Positions 3,020-42,089 of a DNA stretch of 64,000 nucleotides are shown piece by piece. The position numbers were made by a program, and so were the translations under genes. The stretch's first letter is position 1. Every line of letters starts with the position of its first letter. Location of the stretch: contig CAZOUN010000001.1 in assembly GCA_964582965.1 (NCBI GenBank), positions 4,745 through 68,744 on the forward strand, given 5' to 3'. Source of the stretch: an uncultured Anaerolineales bacterium. GTDB taxonomy: Bacteria > Chloroflexota > Anaerolineae > Anaerolineales > UBA11858. The notes under the pieces were generated by a model. That model ran no database searches, was not told the DNA's origin, and saw only the letters and a list, made by a program, of their open reading frames with translations.

Positions 3020-3097
3020 GGGCCTATATCCCCGAGCGAGATGGGACTGCAAAAGAAATTAACTATTGCTGAAAACAATTTATTAAGGAGATCCTTG

Positions 3098-4489: not shown

Positions 4490-4516
4490 GTTTTGGAATC
4501 GAAAAGGATTAATAAC

Positions 4517-5917: not shown

Positions 5918-7306
5918 ATGATCGAACCAAAAGTAAAGATCGATGAATTCGTAAATATTTTGGATAAAGCAGAAAATGGCCCCAGGGTGGATATCAAAGA
6001 ATGGGACCAGGTTTATATTTACCAAACCATCAAGGATCTGGTTGAGAAATATGATATCCGTATAGATGTCAAAAATCCGGGAGTTCCTTCTGATGACGAT
6101 CTTGCAGACCGGGTCTTTGAAGCGGCCATGGACCTGGCGGTCCAGAGCGGTGTTTACTGCACGGATACCCAACGCCAGATGATTTTCAGCAGGGATGAAT
6201 TGGAAAAAGTCCTTGCCCGGGTTCCGGAAGAGGTCCAGATCGGCGAAGGACCAGACACTCGTGTAATCAAGAAGAGAATGGTGGACCAGGAAGGCCATGT
6301 AACTATAGGGGGAGGCTTCTGGGGTGTTGTGGTGCCTGAGGACATGCTATTACCCATGACCATGGCGTATGCCCAGATAGAGGAAAATGATTTTCTCTGC
6401 ACCGGGGCTTTGAGAACCACCTATGGGCGCCCCATCCGGGCATACTCTCCTTGGGATACCCTGGCCTGCTGGCAGGAAATGCGCCAGACCTTTGAAGCCA
6501 TTGATCGTGTGGGGCGTCCCGGGATGACAATTTCCGGGCCGAATACCAGTGCCAGCGCCATCGGAACAGTTACTACGGTCACACATGGATGTCTCCGCCC
6601 ATCAGATTATGGAAGTGTTGCCTTCATGAGCGAATTGAAGGTGTCATATGATGACCTGATCCGTGCCTGCCATTACGTCCAGACCAATTCCTTTGCGCAC
6701 AATTTTTACAACCCGATCTATGGCGGTTATGCAGGCGGGGCTGAAGGTGTGGCGGTCGCCCATGTGGCAGGTTTCATATTAATGAAAGCCACTTTGTTTG
6801 GTGAAGCCTTCAATGCCGGGCCCAGTCATGCCCATATGAGCACCAATACTTTCCCACCCTTGATCCCGGCCCAGGCACTGGCACATCAGGCTTTGAGCCG
6901 GAATACCAATATCACCTGCGCGAATTTCACCCGGCCCAATGCTGGCCCGGGAGAGAAAGACCTGCTCTATGAAATTGCAGCCTACCAATTGGCGACTGTG
7001 ACCTCTGGAGTTGAAATAGCTACAGGTGTGCAAACTGCTACTGGACGTCATGAAGCTCATTGTTCACCGTTAGAGGTCCGGTTTTTGATCAAGGTTGTTC
7101 GGGCTGCAGAAAAAATGACCCGAAAAGAGGCAGACCCGATTGTTAAGAAACTGATCGCCCTCTACAGAGACGGCCAGAAAGAACAAAAGATCGGCAAGCC
7201 ATTTAATGAAGTCTATGATTTAGAGACTTTGGAACCCAAATCAGAATGGCAGTCCGTTTTTGATGAAGTAGTAGATGAACTCGTAAGTTTGGGACTAAAG
7301 CTTTAA
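5918..7306 (+). CDS. MtmB-family methyltransferase, non-pyrrolysine (paralog 4, class A)
   Basis: RBS AGAGG precedes ATG 5918. GRPGMTISGPNTS resembles archaeal GRPGMGV-Pyl-GPETS; the Pyl-aligned codon is TCC (Ser206) at 6533-6535. Also IYGGYAGGAEG, NAGPSHAHMST, C-terminal FNEVYDLETLEPKSEWQSVFDEV..LGLKL. Confidence 0.88.
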   Translation: MIEPKVKIDEFVNILDKAENGPRVDIKEWDQVYIYQTIKDLVEKYDIRIDVKNPGVPSDDDLADRVFEAAMDLAVQSGVYCTDTQRQMIFSRDELEKVLARVPEEVQIGEGPDTRVIKKRMVDQEGHVTIGGGFWGVVVPEDMLLPMTMAYAQIEENDFLCTGALRTTYGRPIRAYSPWDTLACWQEMRQTFEAIDRVGRPGMTISGPNTSASAIGTVTTVTHGCLRPSDYGSVAFMSELKVSYDDLIRACHYVQTNSFAHNFYNPIYGGYAGGAEGVAVAHVAGFILMKATLFGEAFNAGPSHAHMSTNTFPPLIPAQALAHQALSRNTNITCANFTRPNAGPGEKDLLYEIAAYQLATVTSGVEIATGVQTATGRHEAHCSPLEVRFLIKVVRAAEKMTRKEADPIVKKLIALYRDGQKEQKIGKPFNEVYDLETLEPKSEWQSVFDEVVDELVSLGLKL

Positions 7307-7326
7307 TTATTTTGAAAGGATTAGCT

Positions 7327-8193
7327 ATGAATAAACCCGAATACCTGGCACCAAAAACCTTAGAGGAAGCCTTCGAGGCGCTTAAGAGTAATCCGGACGG
7401 CACGATGATCATTGCCGGCGGTACCGACATGGTTCCCCGCATGCGAGCTGGTGTTTTTAAACCAGATTTACTGGTTGATCTCCGCCTGTTGGCCTTGGAT
7501 GAGATAACACTTGAGGATGACTTTGTTCGGATTGGCGCTTATGTTACCCATTCCGACATCCTTGGATCACAGCTCTTGAGTGATCAGTTCCCTGCCCTAG
7601 TGGAAGCAGCCAAAGATATTGCTGGGCCTCCTATCCGCAATCGCGGTACGCTGGGTGGCAATCTAGTAAATGCATCACCTGCTGCAGACCTGGCAACACC
7701 CCTGATCGCCTATGATGCGCTAGCGGTCATAGCTGACCAGAGTGGCGAGCGAGATGTGCCGCTGAGTAGATTTTTCACTGGCCCTGGAAAGACAGTGTTA
7801 AAGCCAGAAGAAATTCTTACAGCAATTAAGATCCAGAAAATCTCCAGTAAGACAGGCGCAAAGTTTACCAAGTTGGGTAAAAGAAAAGCAATGGCCATTG
7901 CTGTTGTCAGCGCGGCAGTAAGGATTTCCCTGAACGAAGAAGGAAAAATTCAAACAGCCAGGATTGCCCTGGGGTCTGTCGCACCGGTTCCTCTGCGAGT
8001 TCCAAAAGCCGAGGAAGTTTTGGAGGGGAAAACACCTGACGAAAAATTATTTGCCAACGCCGGACAGACTGCCAGTGAGCAATGCACTCCGATCTCGGAC
8101 CTACGCTCAACGGGTGATTACCGAAAAAAAATGGTCGCGGTTTTGGTCAGAAGGGCTTTATCAGCGGCCTGGGAAAATCTGCAGGCGGAGTGA
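7327..8193 (+). CDS. Molybdenum hydroxylase FAD-binding medium subunit (CoxM/XdhB-like)
   Basis: ~290 aa with IIAGGTDMVP and GTLGGNLVNASPAADL motifs. ATG 7327 follows AAAGGA; the ORF-track start at 7312 is TTG. The 2Fe-2S subunit gene starts 3 nt after its stop. Confidence 0.8.
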   Translation: MNKPEYLAPKTLEEAFEALKSNPDGTMIIAGGTDMVPRMRAGVFKPDLLVDLRLLALDEITLEDDFVRIGAYVTHSDILGSQLLSDQFPALVEAAKDIAGPPIRNRGTLGGNLVNASPAADLATPLIAYDALAVIADQSGERDVPLSRFFTGPGKTVLKPEEILTAIKIQKISSKTGAKFTKLGKRKAMAIAVVSAAVRISLNEEGKIQTARIALGSVAPVPLRVPKAEEVLEGKTPDEKLFANAGQTASEQCTPISDLRSTGDYRKKMVAVLVRRALSAAWENLQAE

Positions 8194-8196
8194 TCT

Positions 8197-8670
8197 ATGA
8201 CTAATATTACTTTGAATTTTACTGTCAACGGAGATCCACAGGAAGTGACCACATCTCCCACAAGCACTTTGCTCAGTGTTTTGCGGGACGAATTGAAATT
8301 GAAAAGCCCTAAGGAAGCTTGCGGTCAGGGAGATTGCGGCGCGTGTGTAGTCCTGCTGGATGGAAAAGCGGTCAATTCCTGTTTGGTCTTGGCTGCCCAG
8401 GCCCAGGGAGCAGAGGTGCTCACTATTGAAGGTTTGGCCGAGCATGGAAAACTACATCCCCTGCAGCGGAACTTTATCGATAATTGGGCCTTCCAATGCG
8501 GCTACTGTACCTCAGGGATGTTGATGTCAGTTTACGGATTGCTCCTGGATAATCCCAAACCGACACGAGAGGAAATTAAAACAGCCATTTCCGGCAATCT
8601 TTGCCGCTGCACAGGTTATGAGGAAATCATTGAAGCTGTGGAAATGACTGCGACCGAGTTAAGTAAATAA
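8197..8670 (+). CDS. Molybdenum hydroxylase [2Fe-2S] small subunit (CoxS/XdhC-iron-sulfur type), set 1
   Basis: 157 aa with both cluster motifs: CGQGDCGACVV..NSC and CGYCTSGM...CRCTGY. Confidence 0.9.
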   Translation: MTNITLNFTVNGDPQEVTTSPTSTLLSVLRDELKLKSPKEACGQGDCGACVVLLDGKAVNSCLVLAAQAQGAEVLTIEGLAEHGKLHPLQRNFIDNWAFQCGYCTSGMLMSVYGLLLDNPKPTREEIKTAISGNLCRCTGYEEIIEAVEMTATELSK

Positions 8671-8698: not shown

Positions 8699-9361
8699 AT
8701 GAGTGACTGGAATACATTACAACCGCAATTTATCGATTTGATATTAGCTGGTGATGATGCTGCTGCCATTAAGATGGCCAAGGATTCCCTTGATGGCGGG
8801 ACTACCCCGGTAGAGTTTTTTGAAAATTGTATAGCTCCCTCCTTGAAGGAAGTAGGCAAACGTTTTGAAACGCTGGATATCTTCCTGCCGGAAATGGTCA
8901 CTGCAGCGGATACTGTAGAAGCCGTAAATACTGAAGTGATCAACCCTGCCGTTGCGGAAGCTAATGATGGCACCAGCATGTCCCAGGGCAAAGTACTCCT
9001 AGCGACAGTCCAGGGCGATTTGCACGATATCGGTAAAAACATGGTTGGCCTGATGTTAAAAGTAAATGGCTTTGAAGTTGTTGACCTGGGCACCAATGTT
9101 TCCCCAGCTGATATCGTCGCCAGAGCGGAGCAGGAAGAAGTTGACATCATCGGTATGTCAGCCCTCTTAACCACCTGCCTTCCGTATATGAAAGATGTAG
9201 GCGACCACCTGGTAGCCAAAGATATCCGGGGAAAATATGAGGTCATTATCGGTGGCGCTGCTGCAACCCCAGATGTAATGGAAGAGATGGGTGCCAATGC
9301 CTACGGAAGCTCTGCAGCCGATGGCGTAAAGAAATGTAAGATGCTTTTGGGAAAATTATAA
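8699..9361 (+). CDS. Corrinoid (cobalamin-binding) methyl-carrier protein 1, MtmC/MtbC-like
   Basis: 220 aa with an N-terminal helical cap and a Rossmann B12 domain. Carries GDLHDIGKN (DxHxxG), MSALLTT and IIGGAA. RBS AAGGAG is upstream. Confidence 0.88.
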   Translation: MSDWNTLQPQFIDLILAGDDAAAIKMAKDSLDGGTTPVEFFENCIAPSLKEVGKRFETLDIFLPEMVTAADTVEAVNTEVINPAVAEANDGTSMSQGKVLLATVQGDLHDIGKNMVGLMLKVNGFEVVDLGTNVSPADIVARAEQEEVDIIGMSALLTTCLPYMKDVGDHLVAKDIRGKYEVIIGGAAATPDVMEEMGANAYGSSAADGVKKCKMLLGKL

Positions 9362-9403: not shown

Positions 9404-9862
9404 ATGGCACAGCGCAATAATATGGGCGTGATTGTCGCAGGCGTTACTGGAATGGTGTTTGGTGGTGTTACAGCCGTAGAAGGTTATGTTTCCCGGTCTG
9501 TTGGCGCAGTGAATGCCAGCTTGATCGAACATGTTTTTGCAGCGATGGTGGCTGTTCCCGCGGTGATTTATTTATTCATGCGGGGCAACTTGACATGGGA
9601 AGGGACCAAATCTATCCTTCCTATATCGGCTGTAGCCGGCGTAATGGTCATTATCGCTGTGGCTGGTGTCGCCTATGCCATACCCAAGACCGGTGTTGCG
9701 GCTGGCAATATGGCCATGATGTTTGGTCAGATGGCAGTTGCGGTAGTGATCGATATGATCGGAGTCGGTGGATATGATAAAGTCCCGCTGACCTTACCGC
9801 GAGTTCTTGGCCTTTTACTGATGATCGTTGGTGTTTACTTAGTGCTGCCACGGCAGTCTTGA
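9404..9862 (+). CDS. DUF606/YdcZ-type small DMT-superfamily membrane protein 1
   Basis: 152 aa, about 5 hydrophobic helices. Its C-terminal pattern AIPKTGVAAGNMAMMFGQMAVAVVIDMIG...LLMIVGVYLV parallels the second copy at 48323. RBS GGAGAAG. Confidence 0.6.
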   Translation: MAQRNNMGVIVAGVTGMVFGGVTAVEGYVSRSVGAVNASLIEHVFAAMVAVPAVIYLFMRGNLTWEGTKSILPISAVAGVMVIIAVAGVAYAIPKTGVAAGNMAMMFGQMAVAVVIDMIGVGGYDKVPLTLPRVLGLLLMIVGVYLVLPRQS

Positions 9863-9877
9863 AAACAAGGATGATAT

Positions 9878-12145
9878 ATGCACGACTATGAAATAGTTGG
9901 AAAGGGAATGGCTGCTATTGGGGGGAAGGACGTTGTCACAGGAAAAGCGGTGTACGCACCGGATATTGAATTTTCGGATATGCTGGTTGGGAAACTGCTG
10001 TACAGCCCCTATGCCTGCGCCCGGATTCTCAAGCTGGATGTTGCAAAGGCCAGAGAGTTACCTGGTGTGGTTGCAGTCATGACAGCAGAGGATATTCCTG
10101 GTGAAAACAGCTACCAATACTGGTACAGTGACCAGCCCTTACTGGTGAAGGATCAAATCCGTTATCGAGGAGACCCGCTTGCAGCCGTAGCAGCGGAAAC
10201 AGAAGAGATTGCCCTGCTTGCCCTGGCTGCTATTGAAGTTGAATATGAACCCCTGGAAGGGATATTTGATGTCGATGAAGCCATGCGGCCGGGCGCGAAG
10301 AAGGTCTGGGCAGAGAAAGAGAATATCCACAGCCATCATGTTGAGAGCTGGGGGGATATCGAAGAGGGTTTTTCAAAAGCGGACGTGATCGTTGAAAACA
10401 CCTTCCAAACCTCATATCAGGAACATGCTATGCTGGAAACTGAATCAGCGGTTGCAAAATTGGATCTAGACGGCTCGGTAGTGGTGTATGCCTCCGCCCA
10501 AGCTCCTCACCGCGACCGGATCCAGATTGCCAGGGCTTTAGGTGTGCCTGAAGCGATGGTGCGTGAGATCACTCCTCATATCGGAGGTGCATTTGGCGGG
10601 AAGGATGAAGCCAATATCCAGATTCATGCCGCATTGCTGGCTAACCAGACCAAACGACCGGTCCGCATTGTTAGGACCCGGGAAGAATCTATCCTGACCC
10701 ATGTCAAACGCCACCCGATCAAGGTGAAATACCGCATGGGCGCAACTAAAGAGGGTAAATTAACTGCAATTCATCTGGTGGGTATCGGGGATACCGGTCC
10801 TTATGTGAATGCCGGTGAAGAAGTCATGATGGTGATGGGCGCGTATGGATTCTCACCCTATTTTGTTCCTCACGCCAAGACTGAAGCATATACGATATTT
10901 ACGAATAATCCGATAGGCGGCGCCTTCCGCGGATTTGGTGTACCGCAGGCAACCCTTGCTTTTGAGGGTTCGATGGATGCGCTGGCCAGAGAACTGGAAA
11001 TGGACCCCCTGGAGATCCGGAAGATCAATGGATTAAAAACAGGTCAGAAATTCCAGCCTAATTCTGTAGTACGGCAGGCAGAAGGGCTGCTGGCTTGCCT
11101 AGATAGAGCTGCTGAATTATCAGACTGGAAGAATAGAGGGGAAAAAGAGCGCCAACCTGCCCCGAATCTGCGCCGCGGTTGGGGATTGGCTTTATCCTTT
11201 CATAAAGTAGGTTTTGGACGTAATATACCGGACCACGCCGCCGCTGGCATCAATATGGCCCCGGATGGCTCGGTTTTGGTTCGGACCGGCGGGGCAGATC
11301 TGGGACAGGGCTTACATACACTGATCGCACAATTTGTTGCTGAACAGTTGGGGGTTCCCTTTGATCAGGTGAAGGTATTTAAACCGGATACCACCCTCGC
11401 TGCAGATGCTGGTGCGTCAGTTGCCAGCCGCGCGACCGTTTTTTCTGGAAACGCAACCCTGCGAGCCGCAGCACCCATTCGTCAAGTTCTAATTGATCTT
11501 GCCGCCGCTGAGGTTGGCGCTGATCCAGAACTGATTGATCTAAAAAAAGGATATGTATATGTAGAAAATGAACAGGTCCAGCTTTCTATCCAGGAACTTG
11601 CATCTATGGCTTATGAGAAGAACCTGCCAATGCAGGCGACCGGTTTTTTCACCATGGATTATCCCGAGGTGAAATTGGATGACGGTTCCACCGGATTTGA
11701 ACAAGTGGTTGGATTTGGAGCTCATGTGGCACAGGTCCTGGTTGATGTGGAAACAGGACAGGTTGAGGTGGAGCGGGTCATCGCTGTGCACGATGCTGGC
11801 ACTATCATCAACCCTAAAGGAGCCCGTGGTCAGGTGGAGGGGGCCGTTTCGATGGCCTGCGGTTATGCCTTGATGGAAGAGTTGATTGTGGACCAGGGAT
11901 TGATCCAGAATCCTTCCTTGGAGAGTTATTTGATCCCCACGGTATGGGACGTGCCAGAGATTATTGCGGACTTCGTCGAGATCGAAGATGCTGCGGGACC
12001 ACTTGGGGCCAAAGGATTGGGTGAACCGCCCATGAATATCACTCCAGCTGCGATCGCCAACGCGGTAACTGACGCCATCGGTGTACCCGCTACCCATCTT
12101 CCTATCACGCCTGAACGAGTCTTGTCGTTATTAGAAACTAAGTAA
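9878..12145 (+). CDS. Molybdenum hydroxylase large (molybdopterin) subunit, xanthine dehydrogenase family, set 1
   Basis: 755 aa with GGAFGGKDE, GGAFRGFGVPQ and GLGEPPM (catalytic Glu region). The form I CO-dehydrogenase VAYRCSFR loop was not seen. Confidence 0.88.
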   Translation: MHDYEIVGKGMAAIGGKDVVTGKAVYAPDIEFSDMLVGKLLYSPYACARILKLDVAKARELPGVVAVMTAEDIPGENSYQYWYSDQPLLVKDQIRYRGDPLAAVAAETEEIALLALAAIEVEYEPLEGIFDVDEAMRPGAKKVWAEKENIHSHHVESWGDIEEGFSKADVIVENTFQTSYQEHAMLETESAVAKLDLDGSVVVYASAQAPHRDRIQIARALGVPEAMVREITPHIGGAFGGKDEANIQIHAALLANQTKRPVRIVRTREESILTHVKRHPIKVKYRMGATKEGKLTAIHLVGIGDTGPYVNAGEEVMMVMGAYGFSPYFVPHAKTEAYTIFTNNPIGGAFRGFGVPQATLAFEGSMDALARELEMDPLEIRKINGLKTGQKFQPNSVVRQAEGLLACLDRAAELSDWKNRGEKERQPAPNLRRGWGLALSFHKVGFGRNIPDHAAAGINMAPDGSVLVRTGGADLGQGLHTLIAQFVAEQLGVPFDQVKVFKPDTTLAADAGASVASRATVFSGNATLRAAAPIRQVLIDLAAAEVGADPELIDLKKGYVYVENEQVQLSIQELASMAYEKNLPMQATGFFTMDYPEVKLDDGSTGFEQVVGFGAHVAQVLVDVETGQVEVERVIAVHDAGTIINPKGARGQVEGAVSMACGYALMEELIVDQGLIQNPSLESYLIPTVWDVPEIIADFVEIEDAAGPLGAKGLGEPPMNITPAAIANAVTDAIGVPATHLPITPERVLSLLETK

Positions 12146-12162: not shown

Positions 12163-13392
12163 ATGACAGCCGCTTATCAAAATCGCTTGGATAATCTGAA
12201 TAAAGCCTTTCGCCTGGAACTCAAGGAAAAGGTGCTGCTGGCGCCATTCTCGGATCACTTTTTCTCCACCAGAAGGACGGGACTCTCGAATAAAGACGCC
12301 ATGGTGGATCACAAGAAGCGCTATCAGGCAATCAAACAAACTGTCTTGGATTTTGATTTGGATCTGGCGATGCAGTCCGGAGTCTACCCGGCGCAGTGGT
12401 TCTCAGCACTGGATGCTAAACATTATTATTGGCCAGGCGGTGAGCTGCCTGAGGATAAAACCTTCCAATTCAATGAAAAAGAGAACTTGATGGCGGATGA
12501 ATATGACCAATTCCTTGCTGATCCGACAGATTTCACGATCAGGGTGCTCTGGCCGCGTATGACGGGTAAACTGGAACCTATGGCAGCGTTTCCGCCCATA
12601 TTTTCGCTGGGACCGGACCCCATTTTCCTGGGGCCGGCTTTTTCGTATCCTGAGAACCTGGAAGTATTACGGGCGTTGATCAAACTGGGTGAAGCTGCGG
12701 CAGAGTCGGATCAGGCTGGAGCGGAATATGTAGCAGACATGAAAGAGCTTGGTTATCCGGTATCCTATCAGGCTAATTTCACACCCCCCTTTGATATCGT
12801 TGCAGATTTTCTGAGAGGATTAAAGGGAACCATGTTGGATCTGTACAGGCAGCCGGAAAAATTACTAGCTGCAGTTGAACTCTACGTGGAACCCCAGATC
12901 GAAGCCGCAATCAGCTGGGCAGAGGCAGTAGGCAATCCACGGATCGTATTTTGGATGCATAAAGGTGCAGCAGGTTTTATGTCAGATGAGCATTATAAGG
13001 ATTATTACTGGCCCAGCACCAGGAAAGTTATGCTCCGCCTGGTTGAAGCGGGGCTGACGCCGATACTTCATGTCCAGGGAGACTACACCCCCAGGCTAGA
13101 ATATCTAGCCGAGCTTCCCCGCGGCAAAGTGCCCATTCATTATGATCGGGTTGATCACCAGAAAGCCCTGGAGATCATGGGTGACCGCCAGTGCTTCTGG
13201 GGAGGGATCTCTTCGGCATTGTTGGTGACTGGAAACCAGGAGCAGGTGAAGGATGAAGTAATTAAGTTGATAGAATCATTTGGACCACTAGGCGGTTTGA
13301 TTGTGGATGGAAGCGTAGGCATCCCTGACGAAGCCAAGCCCGAGAACATTCAAGCCCTGGTGGACACAGTCCGGTCATACAACGCAGGCTAA
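12163..13392 (+). CDS. URO-D (uroporphyrinogen decarboxylase / MtaA-MtbA-CmuA) family methyltransferase-like protein
   Basis: 409 aa. C-terminal GGLIVDGSVGIPDEAKPENIQALVDTV and LHVQGDYTPRLEYLAELP resemble the URO-D family pattern. The H-x-C zinc motif position of MtaA-type enzymes reads H-V-Q here. The family call is from memory of motifs only. Confidence 0.55.
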   Translation: MTAAYQNRLDNLNKAFRLELKEKVLLAPFSDHFFSTRRTGLSNKDAMVDHKKRYQAIKQTVLDFDLDLAMQSGVYPAQWFSALDAKHYYWPGGELPEDKTFQFNEKENLMADEYDQFLADPTDFTIRVLWPRMTGKLEPMAAFPPIFSLGPDPIFLGPAFSYPENLEVLRALIKLGEAAAESDQAGAEYVADMKELGYPVSYQANFTPPFDIVADFLRGLKGTMLDLYRQPEKLLAAVELYVEPQIEAAISWAEAVGNPRIVFWMHKGAAGFMSDEHYKDYYWPSTRKVMLRLVEAGLTPILHVQGDYTPRLEYLAELPRGKVPIHYDRVDHQKALEIMGDRQCFWGGISSALLVTGNQEQVKDEVIKLIESFGPLGGLIVDGSVGIPDEAKPENIQALVDTVRSYNAG

Positions 13393-13404: not shown

Positions 13405-14808
13405 ATGGAGAAGAAACAACGCTGCGATTTATTATTGACCAGAGGAATTGTCATCACAGTAGATGAGGGCAGGCAAGTTTTTGATCCTGGAACGGTGGCG
13501 ATCCAGGGAGATAAGATACTGGCTGTCGGTCCTGCCAGCGAGATGGATCATTTTCAAGCTGATCGCGTGATCGATTGTAAGGGGAAGATGATCACTCCCG
13601 GTTTTGTCGATTGCCACAACCACCTCTTTGAGTCGCTGCTGCGCGGTGTAGGAGAAGGGATGGAGTTATATCCCTGGCTGGCTGAACTGTTGGAACCTTT
13701 CAGCGACAGGGTCACACGGGAGGAAGCTGTCTCGGCGGTATTAAACTGCTCCCTTGAAGCCATTCGAAATGGGACGACATGTATTATAGATAATCATTAT
13801 GGGCCAACCGACCTCGATACGACCCTTGCTGTTGCTGATGCGATCCAGCAGACCGGGTTGCGAGGTGCTGTTGCCCGTGGGATGTATGGGCCCGCTACAG
13901 ATATCTCTGGAGAACATGGATACCAGTTGGAGCGCACCTTTATGTACAGCGTCCAGGAGGAGATAGATATTTCCCGGGATGCCATGAAAGCCCGGCCAGC
14001 TGGCAGTAAAGTCACTGTTTGGCCTGCTCCGGAAAATGTTTCTTATAATCCACATGAACTCGTGATCGGAGCTGTTGAGCTGGCCCGTGAATTTGGAACC
14101 CGGTGGCATACTCATATGGCAGAGGGGGAAATAGAAGACGGCCTTTACAGAAAAGAAAATGGCGTCGGGATGGTTGAGAAGCTTAATCAAGATGATCTAT
14201 TAAGAGATGGAACCTTTGCTCATGCGATCTGGTTGAGCGATCAGGATATTAAAATATTGGGTGAAGCAGAGGCTGGTATCGCCCACTGCCCCGTGAGCAA
14301 TCAGTATTTGGCCACCGGGATCATGAGATTGCGCGACCTCCAGGCTGCCGGCTCAGTAGTAGGCTTGGGTAGTGATGGTTCTTGCTGCGGCAACCAGGAC
14401 TTGATCCTGGCGATGCGGTCCGCAGTACTCCTGCAGCGCGTGAATACCCTGGACCCCACGGTGGCAACAGCCGAACGGGTTTTTGAAATGGCAACTGTAA
14501 ATGGCGCACGTTATGCGGGAATTGATGCTGGTCAAATAGAACCAGGGAAGCTGGCAGATATCATTGTAATAGGCATGGAAGGATCAAGTACTAAACCATT
14601 TAACCGGGCTCTGGGATCGCTGGTTTATAACGGTTCCGGCGCGGATGTTGAGATGACTATTGTAGGAGGTGAAATAATCTTCGAAAACGGAACAATTATT
14701 AATGTTGACGAGATTTCCATCAAAGATGAAGTTCAAAGAAGAGCAGATGAGCTATTCGAACGACTTGGATTGGAAAACTATCGGACGCATTGGATAAAGC
14801 AACCTTAA
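13405..14808 (+). CDS. Amidohydrolase, MtaD/AtzA/guanine-deaminase-like subfamily (copy 1)
   Basis: 467 aa with PGFVDCHNH (HxH), HTHMAEGE, FAHAIWLS and GLGSDGSCCGNQD. These metal and catalytic positions are typical of this subfamily. Confidence 0.8.
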   Translation: MEKKQRCDLLLTRGIVITVDEGRQVFDPGTVAIQGDKILAVGPASEMDHFQADRVIDCKGKMITPGFVDCHNHLFESLLRGVGEGMELYPWLAELLEPFSDRVTREEAVSAVLNCSLEAIRNGTTCIIDNHYGPTDLDTTLAVADAIQQTGLRGAVARGMYGPATDISGEHGYQLERTFMYSVQEEIDISRDAMKARPAGSKVTVWPAPENVSYNPHELVIGAVELAREFGTRWHTHMAEGEIEDGLYRKENGVGMVEKLNQDDLLRDGTFAHAIWLSDQDIKILGEAEAGIAHCPVSNQYLATGIMRLRDLQAAGSVVGLGSDGSCCGNQDLILAMRSAVLLQRVNTLDPTVATAERVFEMATVNGARYAGIDAGQIEPGKLADIIVIGMEGSSTKPFNRALGSLVYNGSGADVEMTIVGGEIIFENGTIINVDEISIKDEVQRRADELFERLGLENYRTHWIKQP

Positions 14809-14831: not shown

Positions 14832-14903
14832 AGCTTAAGTCTAAAACAAAAAATCCGTGCTGATGAAATTGTCCAGAATATTTAGAAAATGGAGAGTTTA
14901 CAG

Positions 14904-15605
14904 ATGACGGAAGATAAATTTATCAAAGATCTTCGAGATGTGATTGCAAATGGCGATGAAGATCAGGCCGCTCCTGCGGCCCAAGCAGCCATTGATGCCG
15001 GCGTGAATCCAGGAACCTTGATTAAGGAAGCTATTAACGGTCCCATGGATGAGGTTGGAAAATCATTCCAGAATGGGGATATATTCCTGCCTGAATTAAT
15101 TATGATCGGAGATGCAGCAAGGGTAGCATCTGATGTGATTCTGCCCTATATATCCGTCGAAGAACAGGATGCTTCCTCGGGTGGAAAAGTGGTCATCGGT
15201 ACTATTCAGGGCGATATGCATGATATTGGCAAGAGTATTGTCTCGGCTTACTTGATGTCGACCGGATTTAAAGTAAAAGATTTGGGATCCGACGTTACAC
15301 CAAAGGATTTTATACGGGCAGCGGTAGATGAAAAAGCAGACGTGATCGCGATATCTACTTTGTTATCAACCACCCAGCCCCTCTTCGCCAATATCGTCAA
15401 GACCTTGGTGGATTCTGGACAGCGAGACAAAGTCTACGTTGTTGTAGGGGGTGGCCCCGTGACACCTGAATGGGCAGCAGACATTGGTGCTGATGGTTAT
15501 GGTCGGGATGCTGCGGATGCTGCTGATCTGGTTCGCCAGGTCCTTACATCTGGTGAAAAACCACCCTTCGCCAAACCAATAGTCATCGGTGCTTTGAAAC
15601 AATAA
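14904..15605 (+). CDS. Corrinoid methyl-carrier protein 2
   Basis: GDMHDIGKS (DxHxxG), ISTLLSTT, VVGGGPV. GGAGAG (14890-14895) sits 8 nt before ATG 14904. The upstream in-frame ATG at 14889 is the alternative start. Confidence 0.85.
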   Translation: MTEDKFIKDLRDVIANGDEDQAAPAAQAAIDAGVNPGTLIKEAINGPMDEVGKSFQNGDIFLPELIMIGDAARVASDVILPYISVEEQDASSGGKVVIGTIQGDMHDIGKSIVSAYLMSTGFKVKDLGSDVTPKDFIRAAVDEKADVIAISTLLSTTQPLFANIVKTLVDSGQRDKVYVVVGGGPVTPEWAADIGADGYGRDAADAADLVRQVLTSGEKPPFAKPIVIGALKQ

Positions 15606-15628: not shown

Positions 15629-17005
15629 ATGAATAAACCTGAGATTATCAATATCCTGGATCGATCCCAGAACGGAGAATATTGTACGGTGAAAGAATGG
15701 GATATCAAACGCATTCCCAAGGCCGTGAAAGAAAAACTTGAAAAATACGATCTGAAAGGCGCCTGTGATCCTGAAAACCCGGTCAATATGGATGCCGAGC
15801 TGGCTGACCGCTTTTTTAAGGCTGGTTATGAAATGGCCCTGGATCTGGGCATGCTCTGCGAAACAACCGATAGAATAATCAAAGTGTCTAAGGAAGAATT
15901 AGATGCTGCTTTGGAAAAAGCCCCGTCTGAATTAACTATTGGGACTGGCGATGATGCCACGGTAATAAAAACCCGAACACCATCTGACCCCTATGAATGT
16001 AAATTTGGGGCCTCCCTGGGCATCACCGTATCAGAAGACGTTTGGCCAGCCTTGACCGAAGGTATTGCCCGACAGGAAGCTGTGGACGTGCTGGAAGGCG
16101 GCTCATTGAAGTCCATTTATGGACTGGATGTCATTCCTGATGCACCCTCAGAGACCCTGGTAGGTTTTGAGCAGGCTAAACTGCACGTGGAGATCCGCAA
16201 AAAAGCCGGACGTCCGGGGATGGGCGGTATAGGTCAGATCTCGGCCGTGACTGAATATGGTCAGTTTGGCGGCTACGGTATCCCCGGAGCATTACCTATT
16301 ACAGATCTGTCATTGATCTTGTTCCCGTCGGAACTGAAGGTCAATTATCAGACTTTGCACAAGGTGGTGCATACCCTGAATGTTGGCGGTATGATCTTTG
16401 CCGGTTCCCCGGCTATGATCGGCGGTATGCCCGGCCCACCCGAGGGTGCTGTGCTTTCCTGTATTGCTTGTGCCTTGCTGCAGTATCCGATTTTGCAGGC
16501 GGACGTGGGTGGAGGTGAGATCTACGATATCCGCTATCTGTCCAACGTCAATCGCGATGGCATCTGGGCTCTGAGTGTGACTCACCAGGCCCTCAGCCGC
16601 AATACCAATCTTTTGACCCACGGCATTGCCAACCAGGTTTCTGGTCCGGGAACCAAGGAACTTCTTTATGAAACCCTGGTCGGTGTTTCAACCATTGCAG
16701 CTTCCGGAGCTGCATTCTCAACAGGTCCGCGATCGGCGGGTGGAAAATTGGATGACTATCTATCCCCGCTGGAATGTGGTTTCTGCGCTGAAGTATCACA
16801 CGCGGCTTCTGGACTTTCACTTGAAAAAGTGAATGAGATCGCAAAGGCAGTACTGCCGAAATTTGAAGATTCCATCAAGGATCCCCACATCGGCAAGATT
16901 GTTCAGGATGTTTACGACCTTGAGAATTTCAAAGCCAAACCGGAATGGCAGCAAATGTACGATGAGGTTAAACAAGAAGCGATTGACTTGGGATTACCTC
17001 TCTAA
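15629..17005 (+). CDS. MtmB-family methyltransferase, non-pyrrolysine, divergent singleton (paralog 5)
   Basis: Its N-terminus is the closest of the set to archaeal MtmB (MDAELADRFFKAGYEMALDLGMLCETTDRIIKVSKEELDAAL). GRPGMGGIG places ATA (Ile201) at 16229-16231 on the Pyl-aligned site. The GGYxGG motif is replaced by IGGMPGPPEG. C-terminal VQDVYDLENFKAKPEWQQMYDEV..LGLPL. Confidence 0.85.
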   Translation: MNKPEIINILDRSQNGEYCTVKEWDIKRIPKAVKEKLEKYDLKGACDPENPVNMDAELADRFFKAGYEMALDLGMLCETTDRIIKVSKEELDAALEKAPSELTIGTGDDATVIKTRTPSDPYECKFGASLGITVSEDVWPALTEGIARQEAVDVLEGGSLKSIYGLDVIPDAPSETLVGFEQAKLHVEIRKKAGRPGMGGIGQISAVTEYGQFGGYGIPGALPITDLSLILFPSELKVNYQTLHKVVHTLNVGGMIFAGSPAMIGGMPGPPEGAVLSCIACALLQYPILQADVGGGEIYDIRYLSNVNRDGIWALSVTHQALSRNTNLLTHGIANQVSGPGTKELLYETLVGVSTIAASGAAFSTGPRSAGGKLDDYLSPLECGFCAEVSHAASGLSLEKVNEIAKAVLPKFEDSIKDPHIGKIVQDVYDLENFKAKPEWQQMYDEVKQEAIDLGLPL

Positions 17006-17025: not shown

Positions 17026-17063
17026 TTAGTAACTCCTGTTTGATAACAAACAGGAGTTACTAA
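17026..17063 (+). terminator. Strong hairpin after paralog 5: possible terminator or processing/stability element
   Basis: Perfect 17-bp inverted repeat (17026-17042 / 17047-17063, core GTAACTCCTGTTTG ATAA CAAACAGGAGTTAC) with a 4-nt loop, starting 21 nt after the stop. No T-run follows, so it is not a canonical intrinsic terminator. Confidence 0.4.
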
Positions 17064-17129: not shown

Positions 17130-18506
17130 ATGAAACATAGAGGGCGATTACATGAAGTGATCAGAAGGGCAGAGAACGGCCCAATGATCGAAGAAAAAGA
17201 GTTCGAAAAGAACCTGATCACATCAACTGTCGCACGGCTGATTAAGAAATATAACATCAAATTCAACAAGGAAACGATCGTTCCTGCTGATGATGATCTA
17301 GCTGATCGCCTTTACCAGGCTGGACTCGAATTCGCAGTTGAAGTTGGTATGTTTTGTAAAGATACCAGTCGACGAATTTTGTGGTCACGTGAAGAGTACG
17401 AAGACGCCCTTCGTTATTGTCCATCCGAGGCTATTATTGGCGAGGGAAATGACGCGGTAAAAATATTGGCCAGAAGACCTGAGTCCTCAACTCGTGTAGT
17501 TGTCAGCGGCGGAGCGGTTGGTGTACCTGTGCCTGAAGATATGTATCTTCCGCTCATGATGAGTTATGCCAAGGAACCAGTTATTGATCTGCTCGAGCCG
17601 GCCTCAATACAATCTGCTTATGGTATGCCTATGAAAGCGGGATCCCCCCTGGAAATCATCGCAGGATGGCGGGATGCAGAGCTCGCCTTACAGGTCATTA
17701 ATTTAGCGGGCAGGCCCGGGATGGGTTTGGCTTGCGTCACGATCTCAGCTACCGCCATTGGTCAAATTTCCCCTGCCTCTTATGGCGGATTTCGTCAATC
17801 CGATTGGCATCATTGTTCAGTGATGAGTGAATTTAAGACCAGCTATGATCTGTTGTCTAAGGTTACTCACACGACCCGGATCGGCGCAAATATGGAAGCC
17901 TATCTGAACATCATTTTTGGAGGTTACTTTGGAGGCGCTGAAGGGGTCGCGATTGGATTAGCAGCTGGCCCGATCATTCTTAACCAGAATTATATGGGCA
18001 CCACCTACAGTGTCGCCCCCAGCCATCCATTTCTCCACTGTGGTTCCACGTCGGAGATGATCTGGGCGCAAAGCCTGGCGTTCCAGGCAGTTTCCAGGAA
18101 TACAAATCTCCTGACCGCTTCCATGATCAAACCTGCGGGCGGTCCGGGAACCAGATCGATCCTCTATGAGAATGCGGCACTATCGATAGCCAATGTCACT
18201 TCTGGCCTTTCGGTTGTTGAATCCTGTATGTCTGCCAGCGGCACAAATCCCAGGCATGCCAGTGGGCTGGATTCCAAGATATGTGGTGAAGTTGCCCACG
18301 CAGCTACCGGACTCAGTCGGGAACAGGCCAATAAAATCGTAAAACAGTTGACCGAAAAATATGAAAAGGGCCTGAGTGAAAAACCAGCAGGCAAACCTTT
18401 TGAGGAAGTTTATGATCTTGAGACGATCACACCTACGGTTGAATGGCAGGGAATGTACGACGAAGTAAAGGTTGAGCTGCAGCAGATGGGTCTTCCGATT
18501 AATTAG
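17130..18506 (+). CDS. MtmB-family methyltransferase, non-pyrrolysine (paralog 6, class B)
   Basis: RBS TAGGAGGGG. Motifs VPADDDLADRLYQAG, GEGNDAV, GRPGMGLA with GCT (Ala201) at 17730-17732 on the Pyl-aligned site (Methanosarcina barkeri Pyl202), IFGGYFGGAEG, APSHPFLHC, C-terminal KPFEEVYDLETITPTVEWQGMYDEV..MGLPIN. Confidence 0.9.
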   Translation: MKHRGRLHEVIRRAENGPMIEEKEFEKNLITSTVARLIKKYNIKFNKETIVPADDDLADRLYQAGLEFAVEVGMFCKDTSRRILWSREEYEDALRYCPSEAIIGEGNDAVKILARRPESSTRVVVSGGAVGVPVPEDMYLPLMMSYAKEPVIDLLEPASIQSAYGMPMKAGSPLEIIAGWRDAELALQVINLAGRPGMGLACVTISATAIGQISPASYGGFRQSDWHHCSVMSEFKTSYDLLSKVTHTTRIGANMEAYLNIIFGGYFGGAEGVAIGLAAGPIILNQNYMGTTYSVAPSHPFLHCGSTSEMIWAQSLAFQAVSRNTNLLTASMIKPAGGPGTRSILYENAALSIANVTSGLSVVESCMSASGTNPRHASGLDSKICGEVAHAATGLSREQANKIVKQLTEKYEKGLSEKPAGKPFEEVYDLETITPTVEWQGMYDEVKVELQQMGLPIN

Positions 18507-19903: not shown

Positions 19904-19999
19904 AATTTGTCTGGAAGAAATAATAGGAGGTGAAAATTATAATGTATATTTGTTTTGGTGTACTGAAGATTGATTATTAGATTTACAAAGGAGTTCGAA

Positions 20000-21154
20000 A
20001 TGGCTAAAAAACTGAGAATCTGGACAATTATTTCCCTGCTGTTAATCGCATCCATGCTGGTTCTATCGGCATGTGGTCCACAACCTGCAGCAGAAGAACA
20101 GGTTGTCGAAGAAGCAGCTGAGGAAACAATAGAAGAATCAGTGGCTATGCAAAAAGCTTGTTTTATCCACAGTTCAACTGTCAGCGATATGGGCTGGACA
20201 TACGCCAATGAACGAGGTCGCTTGTATTTGAATGAAAATGTTGAAGGTGTCGAAACTACATTAATCGAAAACATCTCAGATTTTGGTGGCTCTGATGTCG
20301 AAAAGGTCATTGAGGATTTCATTCAAGCAGGATGCACCATCATTGTTGGCACAAGCTTTGGCTACACCGAGGCGATTGCTGCTAAAGCAGAAGAACATCC
20401 GGATGTGTTTTTCCTCAATGAGAGCCAGTATATACCTGGAGATAACATTCAGTCACATTGGCTCCGCCTCTACGAAGGTTTCTTCCTGACAGGTGTACTG
20501 GCTGGGAGCATGACGGAGAGTGACGTTATCGGTATTGTTGCAACCTTCCCGATTCCTGAATTACTTCGCCGGTTGAATGGTTTCGCACGCGGTGTCCAGG
20601 AAGTCAACCCAGACGCAACTATTAAAGTTGTTTGGATCAACAGCTGGTATGACCCTGCAAAAGAGACAGAGGCAGCTGAAAGTCTCATTGCGGCAGGTGC
20701 AGATGTGGTCCAGCACTTGTCTTCATCGCCCGCATCCCTGCAGGCAGCGCAAGCAGCTGGCATTTTCGGGATCGGCTACCAGAATGACCAGAGTGAATAC
20801 GGCCCAGACGCCTACCTGGGATCAATGCTCATTGAATGGGGTCCTTTGTTTGCGGATTCGATCGAGAAGATCATGGATGGTACCTGGGAAGCAGGAGAGA
20901 TTTGGTATGGCCTGGCAAGCGGCGCGCTTGATGCGGGTCCATTCTCAGACCTTGTTCCTCAAGACGTCCAGGATCTGATTGCTGATTATAAAGCACAGAT
21001 AATTTCGGGCGAATATCAAATCTGGGAAGGCCCGATGTATAGCCAGGATGGCACACTACAGATCCCGGCTGGAGAAGTACGAGATGATGCAGATATCGAC
21101 CAGATCGATTGGTTGCTCCAGGGTATCGACGGCACAATTCCGAGTATGGAGTAG
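20000..21154 (+). CDS. BMP-family (PnrA/Med-like) ABC substrate-binding lipoprotein, transporter 1
   Basis: AAGGAG (19987-19992) precedes ATG 20000; the ORF-track start at 19970 is TTG. Signal peptide with lipobox LSAC. BMP-like core: SDMGWTYANERG, IIVGTSFGY. Confidence 0.8.
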   Translation: MAKKLRIWTIISLLLIASMLVLSACGPQPAAEEQVVEEAAEETIEESVAMQKACFIHSSTVSDMGWTYANERGRLYLNENVEGVETTLIENISDFGGSDVEKVIEDFIQAGCTIIVGTSFGYTEAIAAKAEEHPDVFFLNESQYIPGDNIQSHWLRLYEGFFLTGVLAGSMTESDVIGIVATFPIPELLRRLNGFARGVQEVNPDATIKVVWINSWYDPAKETEAAESLIAAGADVVQHLSSSPASLQAAQAAGIFGIGYQNDQSEYGPDAYLGSMLIEWGPLFADSIEKIMDGTWEAGEIWYGLASGALDAGPFSDLVPQDVQDLIADYKAQIISGEYQIWEGPMYSQDGTLQIPAGEVRDDADIDQIDWLLQGIDGTIPSME

Positions 21155-21180
21155 AAAAGTTTATCAGTAGAAGTAGATCA

Positions 21181-21216
21181 ATGGCAGCCGGCTTTACGGT
21201 TTAGGCCGGCTGCCAT
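21181..21216 (+). promoter_or_regulatory. Intra-operon stem-loop after the substrate-binding-protein gene
   Basis: Perfect 12-bp arms ATGGCAGCCGGC (21181-21192) / GCCGGCTGCCAT (21205-21216) with a 12-nt loop. It is followed by an A-run, not a T-run. Confidence 0.4.
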
Positions 21217-21236
21217 ATCAAAAAATAGGATTTTAG

Positions 21237-23869: not shown

Positions 23870-23871
23870 TT

Positions 23872-30637: not shown

Positions 30638-30666
30638 TTGACAGGAAACCGGGTTCGGGTTAAACT
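30638..30666 (+). promoter_or_regulatory. Candidate sigma70-type promoter in the 263-bp gap
   Basis: TTGACA (30638-30643), 17-nt spacer, TAAACT (30661-30666). A 14-bp palindrome, AACGAAGCTTCGTT (30626-30639), abuts the -35 element. Confidence 0.4.
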
Positions 30667-33739: not shown

Positions 33740-33743
33740 ACCC

Positions 33744-36029: not shown

Positions 36030-36058
36030 AAAGGCTGCAAAATCAATTTGCAGCCTTT
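36030..36058. terminator. Bidirectional intrinsic terminator at the junction of the two convergent arms
   Basis: AAAGGCTGCAAA (36030-36041) / TTTGCAGCCTTT (36047-36058) form a perfect 12-bp stem with a 5-nt loop. An A-run lies upstream and a T-rich run downstream (GAATTTT). Confidence 0.75.
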
Positions 36059-42088: not shown

Positions 42089-42089
42089 A

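Follow-up and report, generated by a model that had tools for sequence, protein, structure and literature searches.

Four amidohydrolases among pyrrolysine-free MtmB-family methyltransferases: a candidate island for the catabolism of N-methylated, purine-like heterocycles in an uncultured Anaerolineales bacterium

Methylated nucleobases arise from the decay of RNA and DNA, and methylxanthines are common pollutants; to our knowledge, the anaerobic fate of both is essentially unknown. In caffeine-amended anoxic marine sediment, N-demethylation was assigned to methanogens of the genus Methanosarcina and an Anaerolineae lineage was enriched 8.7-fold (bioRxiv 10.64898/2026.01.06.697959). Among pyrrolysine-free members of the MtmB methyltransferase family, the only function shown as of March 2026 is the demethylation of tetramethylammonium and choline by MtqB, and the function of the other members of a 1,061-sequence tree is unknown (PMC13044021). 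The amidohydrolase superfamily includes several hydrolases of alkylated nucleobases: the N2,N2-dimethylguanine hydrolase NdmH, which frees dimethylamine, an N6-methyladenine deaminase, which frees methylamine, a 5-methylcytosine deaminase and a cytokinin deaminase (PMC13054789). Enzymes of the NdmH cluster favour purines that are alkylated or otherwise modified, and the group that they can expel is NH3, an alkylamine or chloride; in the guanine-deaminase cluster a glutamine three residues after the second histidine (HxHxxQ) stabilises the oxyanion of 6-oxo substrates (PMC12828455, PMC13054789). Here, members of both families are analysed in a 64-kb stretch of DNA from an uncultured Anaerolineales bacterium (contig CAZOUN010000001.1; the whole stretch is hereafter the window), where four amidohydrolase genes lie among eleven MtmB-family genes (Table 1). 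An earlier note had singled out the four hydrolases and suggested N-methylated heterocycles as their substrate class.

Starting from observed gene content, gene order, catalytic residues and co-conservation across taxa, we consider it on balance probable that the four hydrolases are parts of a catabolic island for N-methylated, purine-like N-heterocycles in anaerobic Anaerolineales. It is also somewhat probable, on the same grounds, that corrinoid-dependent demethylation would replace oxygenase-dependent demethylation in this island. The open reading frame (ORF) listing and Pfam scans of the window place the island between position 1 and about 49600. It holds 11 MtmB-family substrate methyltransferases (MT1), five B12-binding corrinoid proteins, an MtrH-like pterin-binding methyltransferase (MT2) and the reductive activase RACo, and all four component families of a methyl-transfer system are together at one locus. 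Alongside them are two xanthine-dehydrogenase-family (Mo-hydroxylase) sets, two Bmp/PnrA-type ATP-binding cassette (ABC) importers, two YdcZ half-transporters, three GntR/UTRA regulators, a URO-D/MtaA-like protein and the four amidohydrolases. By our estimate, four such hydrolases within 36 kb is far above the usual few per genome.

The genes are closely packed. On the + strand, 30 same-strand genes extend from 17 to 35975 with intergenic gaps of at most 263 nt, and hydrolase, corrinoid, MtmB, Mo-hydroxylase and importer genes stand in one another's midst. In particular, the hydrolase AH_2 begins 8 nt after MtmB_5 and ends 66 nt before a Bmp binding protein; AH_T lies 12 nt after the URO-D-like gene and 80 nt before a corrinoid protein and MtmB_4; AH_3 follows MtmB_7 at a distance of 263 nt, with the MtrH-like gene starting 37 nt beyond it; and the CodA-like hydrolase gene lies 16 nt after a GntR/UTRA regulator and 21 nt before three MtmB genes. 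The suggestion that the hydrolases are placed directly after methyltransferase modules is exact for AH_2 and looser for AH_3, and it does not describe AH_T or the CodA-like gene, which follow the URO-D/MtaA-like gene and the regulator, respectively. Further, the second Mo-hydroxylase set lacks an FAD subunit gene, and MtmB genes separate the subunit genes that it does have: only 2 nt lie between the FeS gene and MtmB_6, and there is a 23-nt overlap between the Mo-subunit gene and MtmB_7 at the called start of the latter. Such packing hints at tight co-expression or even physical association.

The arrangement around AH_T is conserved. The exact AH_T protein is also found on a Logan contig from SRR8862235. 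In a species-representative genome set, all orthologs with 66-81% identity belong to metagenome-assembled genomes (MAGs) of uncultured Anaerolineales, and homologs with 39-53% identity occur in Acidimicrobiia (many of them sponge symbionts), other Actinomycetota, Paraburkholderia, Herminiimonas and Streptomyces. To map locus contexts, the proteins of the window served as queries against every ORF of the fetched loci. Every Anaerolineales relative compared (L001-L004, L008-L012, L054 and L055) has the order corrinoid protein, YdcZ, Mo subunit, URO-D-like protein, AH_T, corrinoid protein, MtmB_4, at 66-93% identity. This core is usually preceded by MtmB, FAD and FeS genes and is followed at its 3′ side by more MtmB genes, hydrolases, a second FeS/Mo pair, MtrH, an ORF of the 228-aa type and RACo. 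The trio of MtrH-like gene, 228-aa ORF and RACo is also present in L002, L066 and L111, and the URO-D-like gene adjoins AH_T in Anaerolineales loci only. Outside Anaerolineales, the 37 AH_T loci of at least 6 kb include 13 with Mo-hydroxylase subunits, 17 with Bmp-type ABC genes and two with MtmB and a corrinoid protein. One of these two, from Acidimicrobiia (L015), has a Mo subunit and AH_T followed by MtmB_4-type and corrinoid genes. The other, from an unclassified MAG (L024), has methylenetetrahydrofolate reductase (MTHFR), a 228-aa-type ORF, MtrH, MtmB_4-type and corrinoid genes beside AH_T, together with Bmp, a formate/nitrite transporter and FAD, FeS and Mo subunits. Among the window paralogs, the MtmB genes of both loci are most similar to MtmB_4. 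Because it recurs in other taxa, the adjacency of hydrolases and methyltransferases is not due to chance. Separately, a metagenome contig with 70% GC (L006, 9499-13846) carries a 52%-identical AH_T homolog between the 2Fe-2S and Mo subunit genes of a xanthine-dehydrogenase-family enzyme, with hydantoinase genes nearby.

The reciprocal scan gives a consistent picture. Six MtmB_4 orthologs were aligned and used to scan a metagenome collection, which yielded 80 loci with 42-97% identity and GC contents of 36.7-67.4%. Considering the 46 loci of at least 6 kb, and counting without a matched random-locus control, a corrinoid protein is present in 40, Mo-hydroxylase subunits in 19 and an AH-type hydrolase in 20; a hydrolase or a Mo-hydroxylase is present in 30, and either of these or a Bmp importer in 35. 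By our reasoning, this co-occurrence is far above chance, because such genes usually have a low copy number per genome. Compact versions of the island exist: L066 (50% GC) and L067 (65% GC) have the order Bmp-ABC, FAD/FeS/Mo, corrinoid, MtmB_4, AH_2, with AH_2 orthologs of 811 and 769 bits that start about 40 nt after MtmB_4. L125 has the order corrinoid, MtmB_4, AH_2, FAD/FeS/Mo, and L130 (37% GC) the order Mo/FAD/FeS, ABC, Bmp, corrinoid, MtmB_4 and then MtrH. MtmB_4 is paired with AH_T-like genes in L072, L074, L080 and L092, and AH_2 orthologs (600-980 bits) lie directly 3′ of MtmB_4- or MtmB_5-type genes in L011, L057-L059, L066, L067, L071, L090, L091 and L125, with the MtmB_5-AH_2 adjacency itself kept in L011, L058, L059 and L091. 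Overall, two sets of enzymes are conserved as partners: AH_T with MtmB_4 and the corrinoid protein Corr2, and AH_2 with MtmB_4 or MtmB_5. A Bmp/PnrA-type importer is likewise found beside MtmB_4 and AH_T homologs in other loci.

These observations bear on the proposal that the island joins two unrelated pathways. The MtmB proteins would then demethylate quaternary amines such as choline, tetramethylammonium or betaines, while the Bmp importers, together with the hydrolases and Mo-hydroxylases, would serve to salvage and degrade purines or nucleosides in the ordinary way, chemically unconnected to the methyltransferases. Many genomes do have AH_T homologs without any MtmB, AH_3 is borderline as a 5′-deoxyadenosine deaminase and the CodA-like enzyme is near a cytosine deaminase subfamily, and MtqB is a tetramethylammonium/choline enzyme (PMC13044021). 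However, single subunits are interleaved, with a corrinoid gene inside Mo-hydroxylase set 1 and MtmB_6 between the FeS and Mo genes of set 2; AH_2 follows MtmB_5 within 8 nt; and the same combination is seen again in two or more other lineages and in loci whose GC content ranges from 37 to 67%. The proposal also leaves unexplained the exchange of demethylase types around AH_T that is described below, and no hydrolase passes a housekeeping model. We judge it unlikely.

A link to N-demethylation comes from AH_T homologs in other lineages. Pfam scans find a Rieske/VanA_C oxygenase near the AH_T homolog in L005 (17260-18354), L015 (6784-7851) and L032 (6467-7750), and the best solved relatives of these oxygenases are the methylxanthine demethylases NdmA and NdmB (110, 178 and 157 bits, respectively), followed by saxitoxin hydroxylases and dicamba demethylase. 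When the three oxygenases are used as queries, 22 of 41 non-Anaerolineales AH_T loci prove to contain a Rieske oxygenase, and in 18 of them no more than 2.5 kb separates it from the hydrolase; beyond the three query loci, this adds 19 among L014-L048. In contrast, the nine Anaerolineales AH_T loci searched contain none, the 80 MtmB_4-seeded loci give one weak match only, and no Rieske gene is present among the scanned window ORFs of at least 100 aa. The lineages that combine AH_T with the oxygenase are mostly of the aerobic type; the locus of Paraburkholderia silviterrae (L032) has a matching ferredoxin-reductase gene, and the Acidimicrobiia locus L015 holds both the oxygenase and MtmB with a corrinoid protein. 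In L005, a 60%-identical AH_T homolog lies among a PuuD-type urate oxidase, a transthyretin-type 5-hydroxyisourate (HIU) hydrolase and an M20 amidohydrolase, with an Asp/Glu-racemase-family gene, a cytidine-deaminase-fold deaminase and Bmp permeases as further neighbours. The simplest reading of these gene sets is that the AH_T pathway needs a demethylation, which would be carried out by an oxygenase where O2 is available and by MtmB with a corrinoid protein where it is not.

The purine-like character of the substrate can be set against non-purine methylated rings, such as N-methylpyridinium compounds (trigonelline, homarine, 1-methylnicotinamide) or pterin- and B6-like rings. Here the Mo-hydroxylases point in both directions. 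Their Mo subunits have pucD and XdhA as top NCBIfam models, at 561 and 549 bits for set 1 and with pucD at 578 bits for set 2, all below cut-off; in the PDB ranking of the Mo subunit, 4-hydroxybenzoyl-CoA reductase (381 bits) and nicotinate dehydrogenase (332 bits) stand ahead of Rhodobacter capsulatus xanthine dehydrogenase (265 bits). The nicotinate dehydrogenase match speaks for a pyridine-like ring, as does, for pterin- or B6-like rings, the second-best PDB match of AH_T (3hpa, which we take to be a member of the 8-oxoguanine/isoxanthopterin-deaminase neighbourhood) and the weak match of Bmp1 to a putative B6 binding-protein model; cationic N-methyl rings would also suit the quaternary-amine chemistry of the known pyrrolysine-free methyltransferases (PMC13044021). 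Against such rings, Pfam scans of the window contain no 6-hydroxynicotinate reductase or enamidase-type gene, the L005 neighbourhood (uricase, HIU hydrolase, allantoin-type enzyme) is one of purine catabolism, and the oxygenase partners of AH_T resemble methylxanthine demethylases. We give non-purine rings a low probability. The broader class named in the earlier note, N-methylated heterocycles, receives partial support from the co-conserved Mo-hydroxylases and Bmp importers, the pairing with NdmA/NdmB-like oxygenases and the purine context of L005, and it is still a class that we infer.

The methyltransferases differ from the canonical enzyme at one decisive position. MtmB_4 aligns end to end with Methanosarcina barkeri MtmB (1l2q) and has an isoleucine where that enzyme has pyrrolysine, and all 11 paralogs have a sense residue at this position (canonical residue 202) in ORFs without an in-frame stop. 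Canonical monomethylamine methyltransferase is ruled out as an identity for them, as no paralog has a UAG-encoded pyrrolysine. The window contains no tRNA gene, and hence no pyrrolysine tRNA, and its Pfam scans gave no pyl-type family. Pairwise identities among the paralogs are 29-61%, and MtmB_4 is the most divergent, at 30-34% to the other ten; such a spread speaks for a large number of distinct substrates over one to three methylamines. Eleven pyrrolysine-free paralogs within 47 kb (17-47387) are an unusually large expansion of a family with one characterised member.

These features argue against the second of two schemes in the earlier note, according to which the hydrolases would act as alkylaminohydrolases on exocyclic N-methylamino groups (for example those of N6-methyladenine, N2-methylguanine, N2,N2-dimethylguanine or N4-methylcytosine) and the freed mono- or dimethylamine would feed the MtmB paralogs. 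The scheme can draw on NdmH and N6-methyladenine deaminase as precedents for the hydrolase step (PMC13054789), on the retention in AH_2 and AH_3 of the HxHxxQ glutamine that is essential in NdmH, and on the MT1 genes being of the monomethylamine methyltransferase family. But all 11 paralogs lack pyrrolysine, the methylamine-binding residue of canonical MtmB, and the window has no tRNA gene that could supply it; the diversity of the paralogs is hard to square with one to three small amines; other lineages fill the same slot with an oxygenase of the Ndm-like ring N-demethylase type and not with a methylamine-oxidising system; and the only known pyrrolysine-free MtmB does not take methylamine (PMC13044021). 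The scheme is disfavoured, and we regard it as improbable.

All four hydrolase ORFs are complete reading frames at the positions given in the earlier note, and all have strong Pfam amidohydrolase matches. AH_T, AH_2 and AH_3 are of the chlorohydrolase/deaminase type (TRZ/ATZ, MtaD, guanine deaminase), with full-length Pfam matches. In a four-way alignment, the catalytic residues H71, H73, H237, E240, H273 and D324 (AH_T numbering) are invariant, and across 24 aligned AH_T homologs they are invariant or nearly so; the metal ligands (the HxH pair of strand 1, the histidine of strand 5 and the aspartate of strand 8), the catalytic HxxE glutamate and the strand-6 histidine are all kept. The catalytic positions that the note had listed are thus retained in all four enzymes, and its literal motif strings hold in three: HNH, HMAE, AHA and SDG in AH_T, HVH, HLSE, AHC and CDG in AH_2, and HTH, HAGE, AHC and SDG in AH_3. 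The CodA-like enzyme differs, with HFH, HIDE, GHC and GQD. It aligns residue for residue with His61, His63, Gln156, His214, Glu217, His246 and Asp313 of Escherichia coli CodA, keeping the CodA-type glutamine (AFPQ), the histidine and glutamate of HIDE, the histidine of GHC and the aspartate of GQDD. The HxHxxQ glutamine is present in AH_2 (HVHTAQ) and AH_3 (HTHLCQ); AH_T has a glutamate there (HNHLFE), and its family has either E or Q.

An AlphaFold2 model of AH_T (pLDDT 89.4, pTM 0.91) has the (beta/alpha)8 barrel and composite beta-sandwich of the amidohydrolase group. Foldseek aligns it with AtzA, 4f0r/4f0s, 7ww2, 3hpa and the isocytosine deaminase Vcz at template modelling (TM) scores of 0.83-0.89; for AtzA, 4f0r/4f0s and Vcz the scores are 0.86-0.89 at 22-27% identity, and no solved structure exceeds 27% identity (AtzA 4v1x, TM 0.88). 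The predicted fold and catalytic machinery of AH_T can be taken as certain; structure prediction and Foldseek supported the fold without narrowing the substrate.

Specificity was assessed against NCBIfam, with the curated cut-off score as the criterion for membership in a named deaminase family, and none of the four hydrolases reaches any cut-off. The 5′-deoxyadenosine deaminase model PRK07228 (cut-off 522 bits) scores AH_T at 270.9, AH_2 at 428.9 and AH_3 at 518.4 bits, so that AH_3 is borderline and, of the four, the nearest to a named family. The methylthioadenosine/S-adenosylhomocysteine (MTA/SAH) deaminase model PRK15493 (cut-off 779) gives 171-277 bits for the three enzymes, with AH_T at 171, and the guanine deaminase models TIGR02967/PRK09228 (cut-off 375.4) give 118.5, 192.5 and 228.8 bits for AH_T, AH_2 and AH_3. 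The CodA-like enzyme scores 384.5 bits with the cytosine deaminase subfamily model PRK07572 (cut-off 438) and 303 bits with PRK09230 (cut-off 483). Lying below all cut-offs, the enzymes do not appear to be housekeeping MtaD, guanine or cytosine deaminases, less clearly so for AH_3 and the CodA-like enzyme; the earlier note had named tight clustering with such deaminases as something that would count against it. Their best solved matches are AtzA (183 bits), 3hpa (165), 7ww2 (142) and the MTA/SAH deaminase 4f0r (139) for AH_T; 4f0r (251) and AtzA (244) for AH_2; 3lnp (192) and 4dyk (190) for AH_3; and E. coli CodA (258) and AtzC (179) for the CodA-like enzyme. AH_T belongs to an uncharacterised hydrolase clade.

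The same scores bear on whether the hydrolases might be ring-openers of anaerobic purine fermentation, similar to xanthine amidohydrolase or SsnA. Anaerobic purine breakdown, as in purinolytic clostridia, requires hydrolytic ring opening; Mo-hydroxylases adjoin the hydrolases, and SsnA models match all three chlorohydrolase-type enzymes at 178-225 bits (cut-off 444). Yet SsnA is never the best model, as deaminase/chlorohydrolase models score higher, and the deaminase proton shuttle is complete, with its HxxE glutamate, histidine and aspartate. Moreover, the carbamoyltransferase, diaminopropionate ammonia-lyase and carbamate kinase of known urate/purine clusters are absent from the window, and AH_T homologs also occur in aerobic uricase contexts. 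A ring-opening role is very unlikely.

Under the favoured reading, a catabolic island for N-methylated purine-like heterocycles, what we propose about the kind of substrate, the way in which methyl groups flow and the sequence of reactions is deduced from protein families and gene order. Methylated bases or nucleosides would be taken up by the Bmp-type ABC importers and possibly by the YdcZ half-transporters. A substrate-specific MtmB paralog would transfer a ring N-methyl group to its cognate corrinoid protein, the MtrH-like enzyme would pass the methyl group from the corrinoid to tetrahydrofolate, with the MTHFR of L024 as the next step, and RACo would re-reduce oxidised corrinoid. The amidohydrolases would replace an exocyclic amino or alkylamino group with oxygen through their HxH/His/Glu/His/Asp machinery. 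This could precede demethylation, as in a conversion of 7-methylguanine to 7-methylxanthine, or come later, as in one of guanine to xanthine. The xanthine-dehydrogenase-family enzymes would hydroxylate a ring carbon. Likely methyl donors to Co(I) would be cationic ring-N-methyl species (7-methylguanosine, 1-methyladenine, 3-methylcytosine) and N-methyl lactams such as methylxanthines, because, by our chemical reasoning, both would have good leaving groups. Exocyclic N-methylamino groups would more plausibly be removed by the hydrolases, as is done by NdmH and N6-methyladenine deaminase (PMC13054789). The other scheme of the earlier note, with MT1 enzymes acting first, would look the same in sequence as deamination followed by demethylation of an N-methyl lactam.

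A more specific version of this pathway is possible, and we advance it tentatively: the MtmB_4 clade with its corrinoid proteins and AH_T/AH_2 would form the first O2-independent, corrinoid-dependent pathway for the N-demethylation and breakdown of methylated purines. Its substrates might then include 7-methylguanine, 1-methyladenine, methylxanthines and modified bases from RNA/DNA turnover. We hold this version of the pathway with less than even confidence. It is equally a matter of conjecture that each of the eleven MtmB paralogs might recognise a different methylated base or methyl position.

Several observations weigh against a purine-directed demethylation pathway. A purine substrate for the Mo-hydroxylases appears not to be secured, given the PDB ranking and the failed pucD/XdhA cut-offs. 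Bmp-family binding proteins bind other planar heterocycles too, and the sole NCBIfam match of Bmp1 is the weak one to the putative B6-transporter binding-protein model. The match to NdmA and NdmB may reflect only that, among solved structures, these two are the nearest within a broad Rieske clade to which saxitoxin hydroxylases also belong. AH_3 may simply be a 5′-deoxyadenosine/MTA-type deaminase, and it is absent from the syntenic position in L002, the nearest relative. In Pfam scans of the window, genes for a nucleoside phosphorylase or hydrolase are absent, as are genes for a later cleavage of the purine ring, and at the gathering threshold Rfam has no match in the window, so that no purine, xanthine, cobalamin or tetrahydrofolate riboswitch offers a ligand clue. 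The co-occurrence counts, moreover, are raw. Finally, MtqB, the sole characterised pyrrolysine-free MtmB, takes tetramethylammonium and choline, not heterocycles (PMC13044021).

The features of the island are listed in Table 1. Downstream of it, Pfam identifies housekeeping genes (DegV, Tex, a dihydrolipoamide-dehydrogenase-type flavoprotein, SurE, glucokinase, transketolase and PtsI). The URO-D-like protein has no MtaA/MtbA His-x-Cys zinc motif and scores far below the cut-offs of the NCBIfam MtaA/CmuA models; it may be a methyltransferase of the MtaA/CmuA fold or a decarboxylase. The 228-aa ORF adjoins MtrH in L024 and lies near MtmB_4 in L080 and L082, and it may be an unrecognised part of the methyl-transfer system. 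Both YdcZ-type half-size drug/metabolite transporters are set within a methyltransferase module. The last gene of the + strand operon encodes a stand-alone allophanate-hydrolase C-terminal (AH_C), or GGACT-like, protein. The 124-nt spacer between MtmB_4 and MtmB_5 contains a 17-bp perfect palindrome with a 4-nt loop (17026-17063); it might serve as an operator, as an attenuator or as a hairpin for RNA stability. Between the convergent + and - strand operons, a 12-bp hairpin with a T-run after it (36030-36058) looks like a shared terminator. Promoter and terminator scans gave counts equal to those of shuffled sequence and define no reliable operon boundaries; a promoter-like consensus match upstream of AH_3 (30638-30666) is to be read at that background.

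Table 1. Positions of the island's features in the 64-kb window.
Feature	Position	Strand	Basis
Edge MtmB paralog (eleventh gene)	17-877	+	Pfam MtmB
CodA-like amidohydrolase, 417 aa	1766-3019	+	Amidohydro_3, E = 6.9e-31
MtmB_1, MtmB_2, MtmB_3 (tandem)	3041-4489, 4493-5896, 5918-7306	+	Pfam MtmB, E = 1.9e-94 to 4.3e-91
Mo-hydroxylase set 1, FAD subunit	7312-8193	+	Pfam
Mo-hydroxylase set 1, 2Fe-2S subunit	8197-8670	+	Pfam
Corrinoid protein, inserted among set 1 subunits	8699-9361	+	Pfam
YdcZ half-transporter, inserted among set 1 subunits	9404-9862	+	Pfam
Mo-hydroxylase set 1, Mo subunit	9878-12145	+	Pfam
URO-D/MtaA-like protein	12163-13392	+	Pfam URO-D, 8.2e-19, C-terminal half only
AH_T amidohydrolase, 467 aa	13405-14808	+	Amidohydro_1, E = 4.8e-53
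Corr2 corrinoid protein	14889-15605	+	Pfam B12-binding plus B12-binding_2
MtmB_4	15629-17005	+	Pfam MtmB, 2.8e-66
MtmB_5	17130-18506	+	Pfam MtmB, 9.3e-97
AH_2 amidohydrolase, 462 aa	18515-19903	+	Amidohydro_1, E = 5.6e-75
Bmp/PnrA-type ABC importer 1 (binding protein, ATPase, two permeases)	19970-24798	+	Pfam Bmp, ABC_tran, BPD_transp_2
Mo-hydroxylase set 2, 2Fe-2S subunit	24843-25319	+	Pfam
MtmB_6, among set 2 subunits	25322-26731	+	Pfam
Mo-hydroxylase set 2, Mo subunit	26908-29178	+	Pfam
MtmB_7, among set 2 subunits	29156-30544	+	Pfam
AH_3 amidohydrolase, 449 aa	30808-32157	+	Amidohydro_1, E = 3e-74
MtrH-like pterin-binding methyltransferase	32195-33049	+	Pfam
Conserved ORF, 228 aa	33053-33739	+	No Pfam or NCBIfam match
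RACo-type reductive activase	33687-35564	+	Pfam
AH_C-domain protein, 127 aa	35592-35975	+	Pfam
Corrinoid proteins	36078-36734, 38167-38799, 47445-48104	-	Pfam
MtmB_8, MtmB_9, MtmB_10	36774-38150, 39592-40992, 45993-47387	-	Pfam
GntR/UTRA regulators	38834-39586, 48806-49570	-	Pfam
Bmp-type ABC importer 2	41138-45887	-	Pfam
Second YdcZ half-transporter	48320-48760	+	Pfam

A literature search found no paper that links MtmB to xanthine dehydrogenase, amidohydrolases or purines; a preprint on the mlp gene cluster, considered as related work, proved unrelated. The hydrolases are new members of known families, and, as far as the searchable literature shows, the conserved coupling of a pyrrolysine-free MtmB clade to deaminase-type hydrolases, Mo-hydroxylases and nucleoside-type importers has not been described, nor has the apparent equivalence of MtmB with a corrinoid protein to an Ndm-like oxygenase system. 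For the pyrrolysine-free MtmB proteins (more than 1,000 sequences), the conserved partnership gives an orphan family a testable hypothesis, namely an anaerobic harvest of methyl groups from purine-like rings, with tetrahydrofolate as the acceptor. If true, this would assign a physiological role to a large part of that family and provide an anaerobic counterpart to the NdmA-E caffeine demethylases. Members of the AH_T clade are common in Burkholderiales and in Acidimicrobiia, sponge symbionts among them, and AH_T carries a glutamate at the position of the glutamine that sets guanine-deaminase-type specificity.

Several known systems share parts of this arrangement. The NdmH/AtzB/8-oxoguanine deaminase cluster resembles the window enzymes in its fold, its Asp-His-Glu proton shuttle and its single metal (PMC13054789, PMC12828455), and the HxHxxQ glutamine of NdmH has its counterpart in AH_2 and AH_3; in contrast, 7ww2 gives only 142-178 bits to the window enzymes, AH_T has glutamate in place of the glutamine, and a corrinoid methyltransferase context is unreported for NdmH. 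Among solved structures, AtzA matches AH_T best, by sequence as well as by fold, and it has the same metal ligands and HMAE motif; however, at 27% identity it is a distant relative, and it is a recently evolved xenobiotic enzyme of plasmid-borne pathways. AtzA and TriA are only a few residues apart. Unlike AtzA, TriA and TrzN, the hydrolases of the window stem from anaerobic communities in nature and are linked with Mo-hydroxylases and methyltransferases; a xenobiotic triazine pathway is ruled out by the low identity of AH_T to AtzA and by the lack of atz or trz genes in the window. MtaD/DadD provides the best NCBIfam model for AH_T, AH_2 and AH_3, and automated pipelines name their homologs accordingly, but all three fall below the 522-bit cut-off and their context is not one of methionine or S-adenosylmethionine salvage. 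In the group of CodA, 5-methylcytosine deaminase, creatinine deaminase and AtzC, the enzyme at 1766-3019 keeps all CodA catalytic residues, but it scores under the NCBIfam subfamily cut-off and precedes three MtmB paralogs instead of standing with codB.

Considering the methyltransferases, MtqB/MtqC of Methanococcoides likewise combines a pyrrolysine-free MtmB-family MT1 with a cognate corrinoid protein; compared by description, it differs in being archaeal, in using coenzyme M as the acceptor, in acting on a simple quaternary amine and in having no hydrolase or Mo-hydroxylase partners (PMC13044021). Finally, NdmABCDE of Pseudomonas putida CBB5 removes N-methyl groups from purine rings, the same chemical job as the one proposed here, but it depends on oxygen, releases formaldehyde and has no sequence relation to MtmB.

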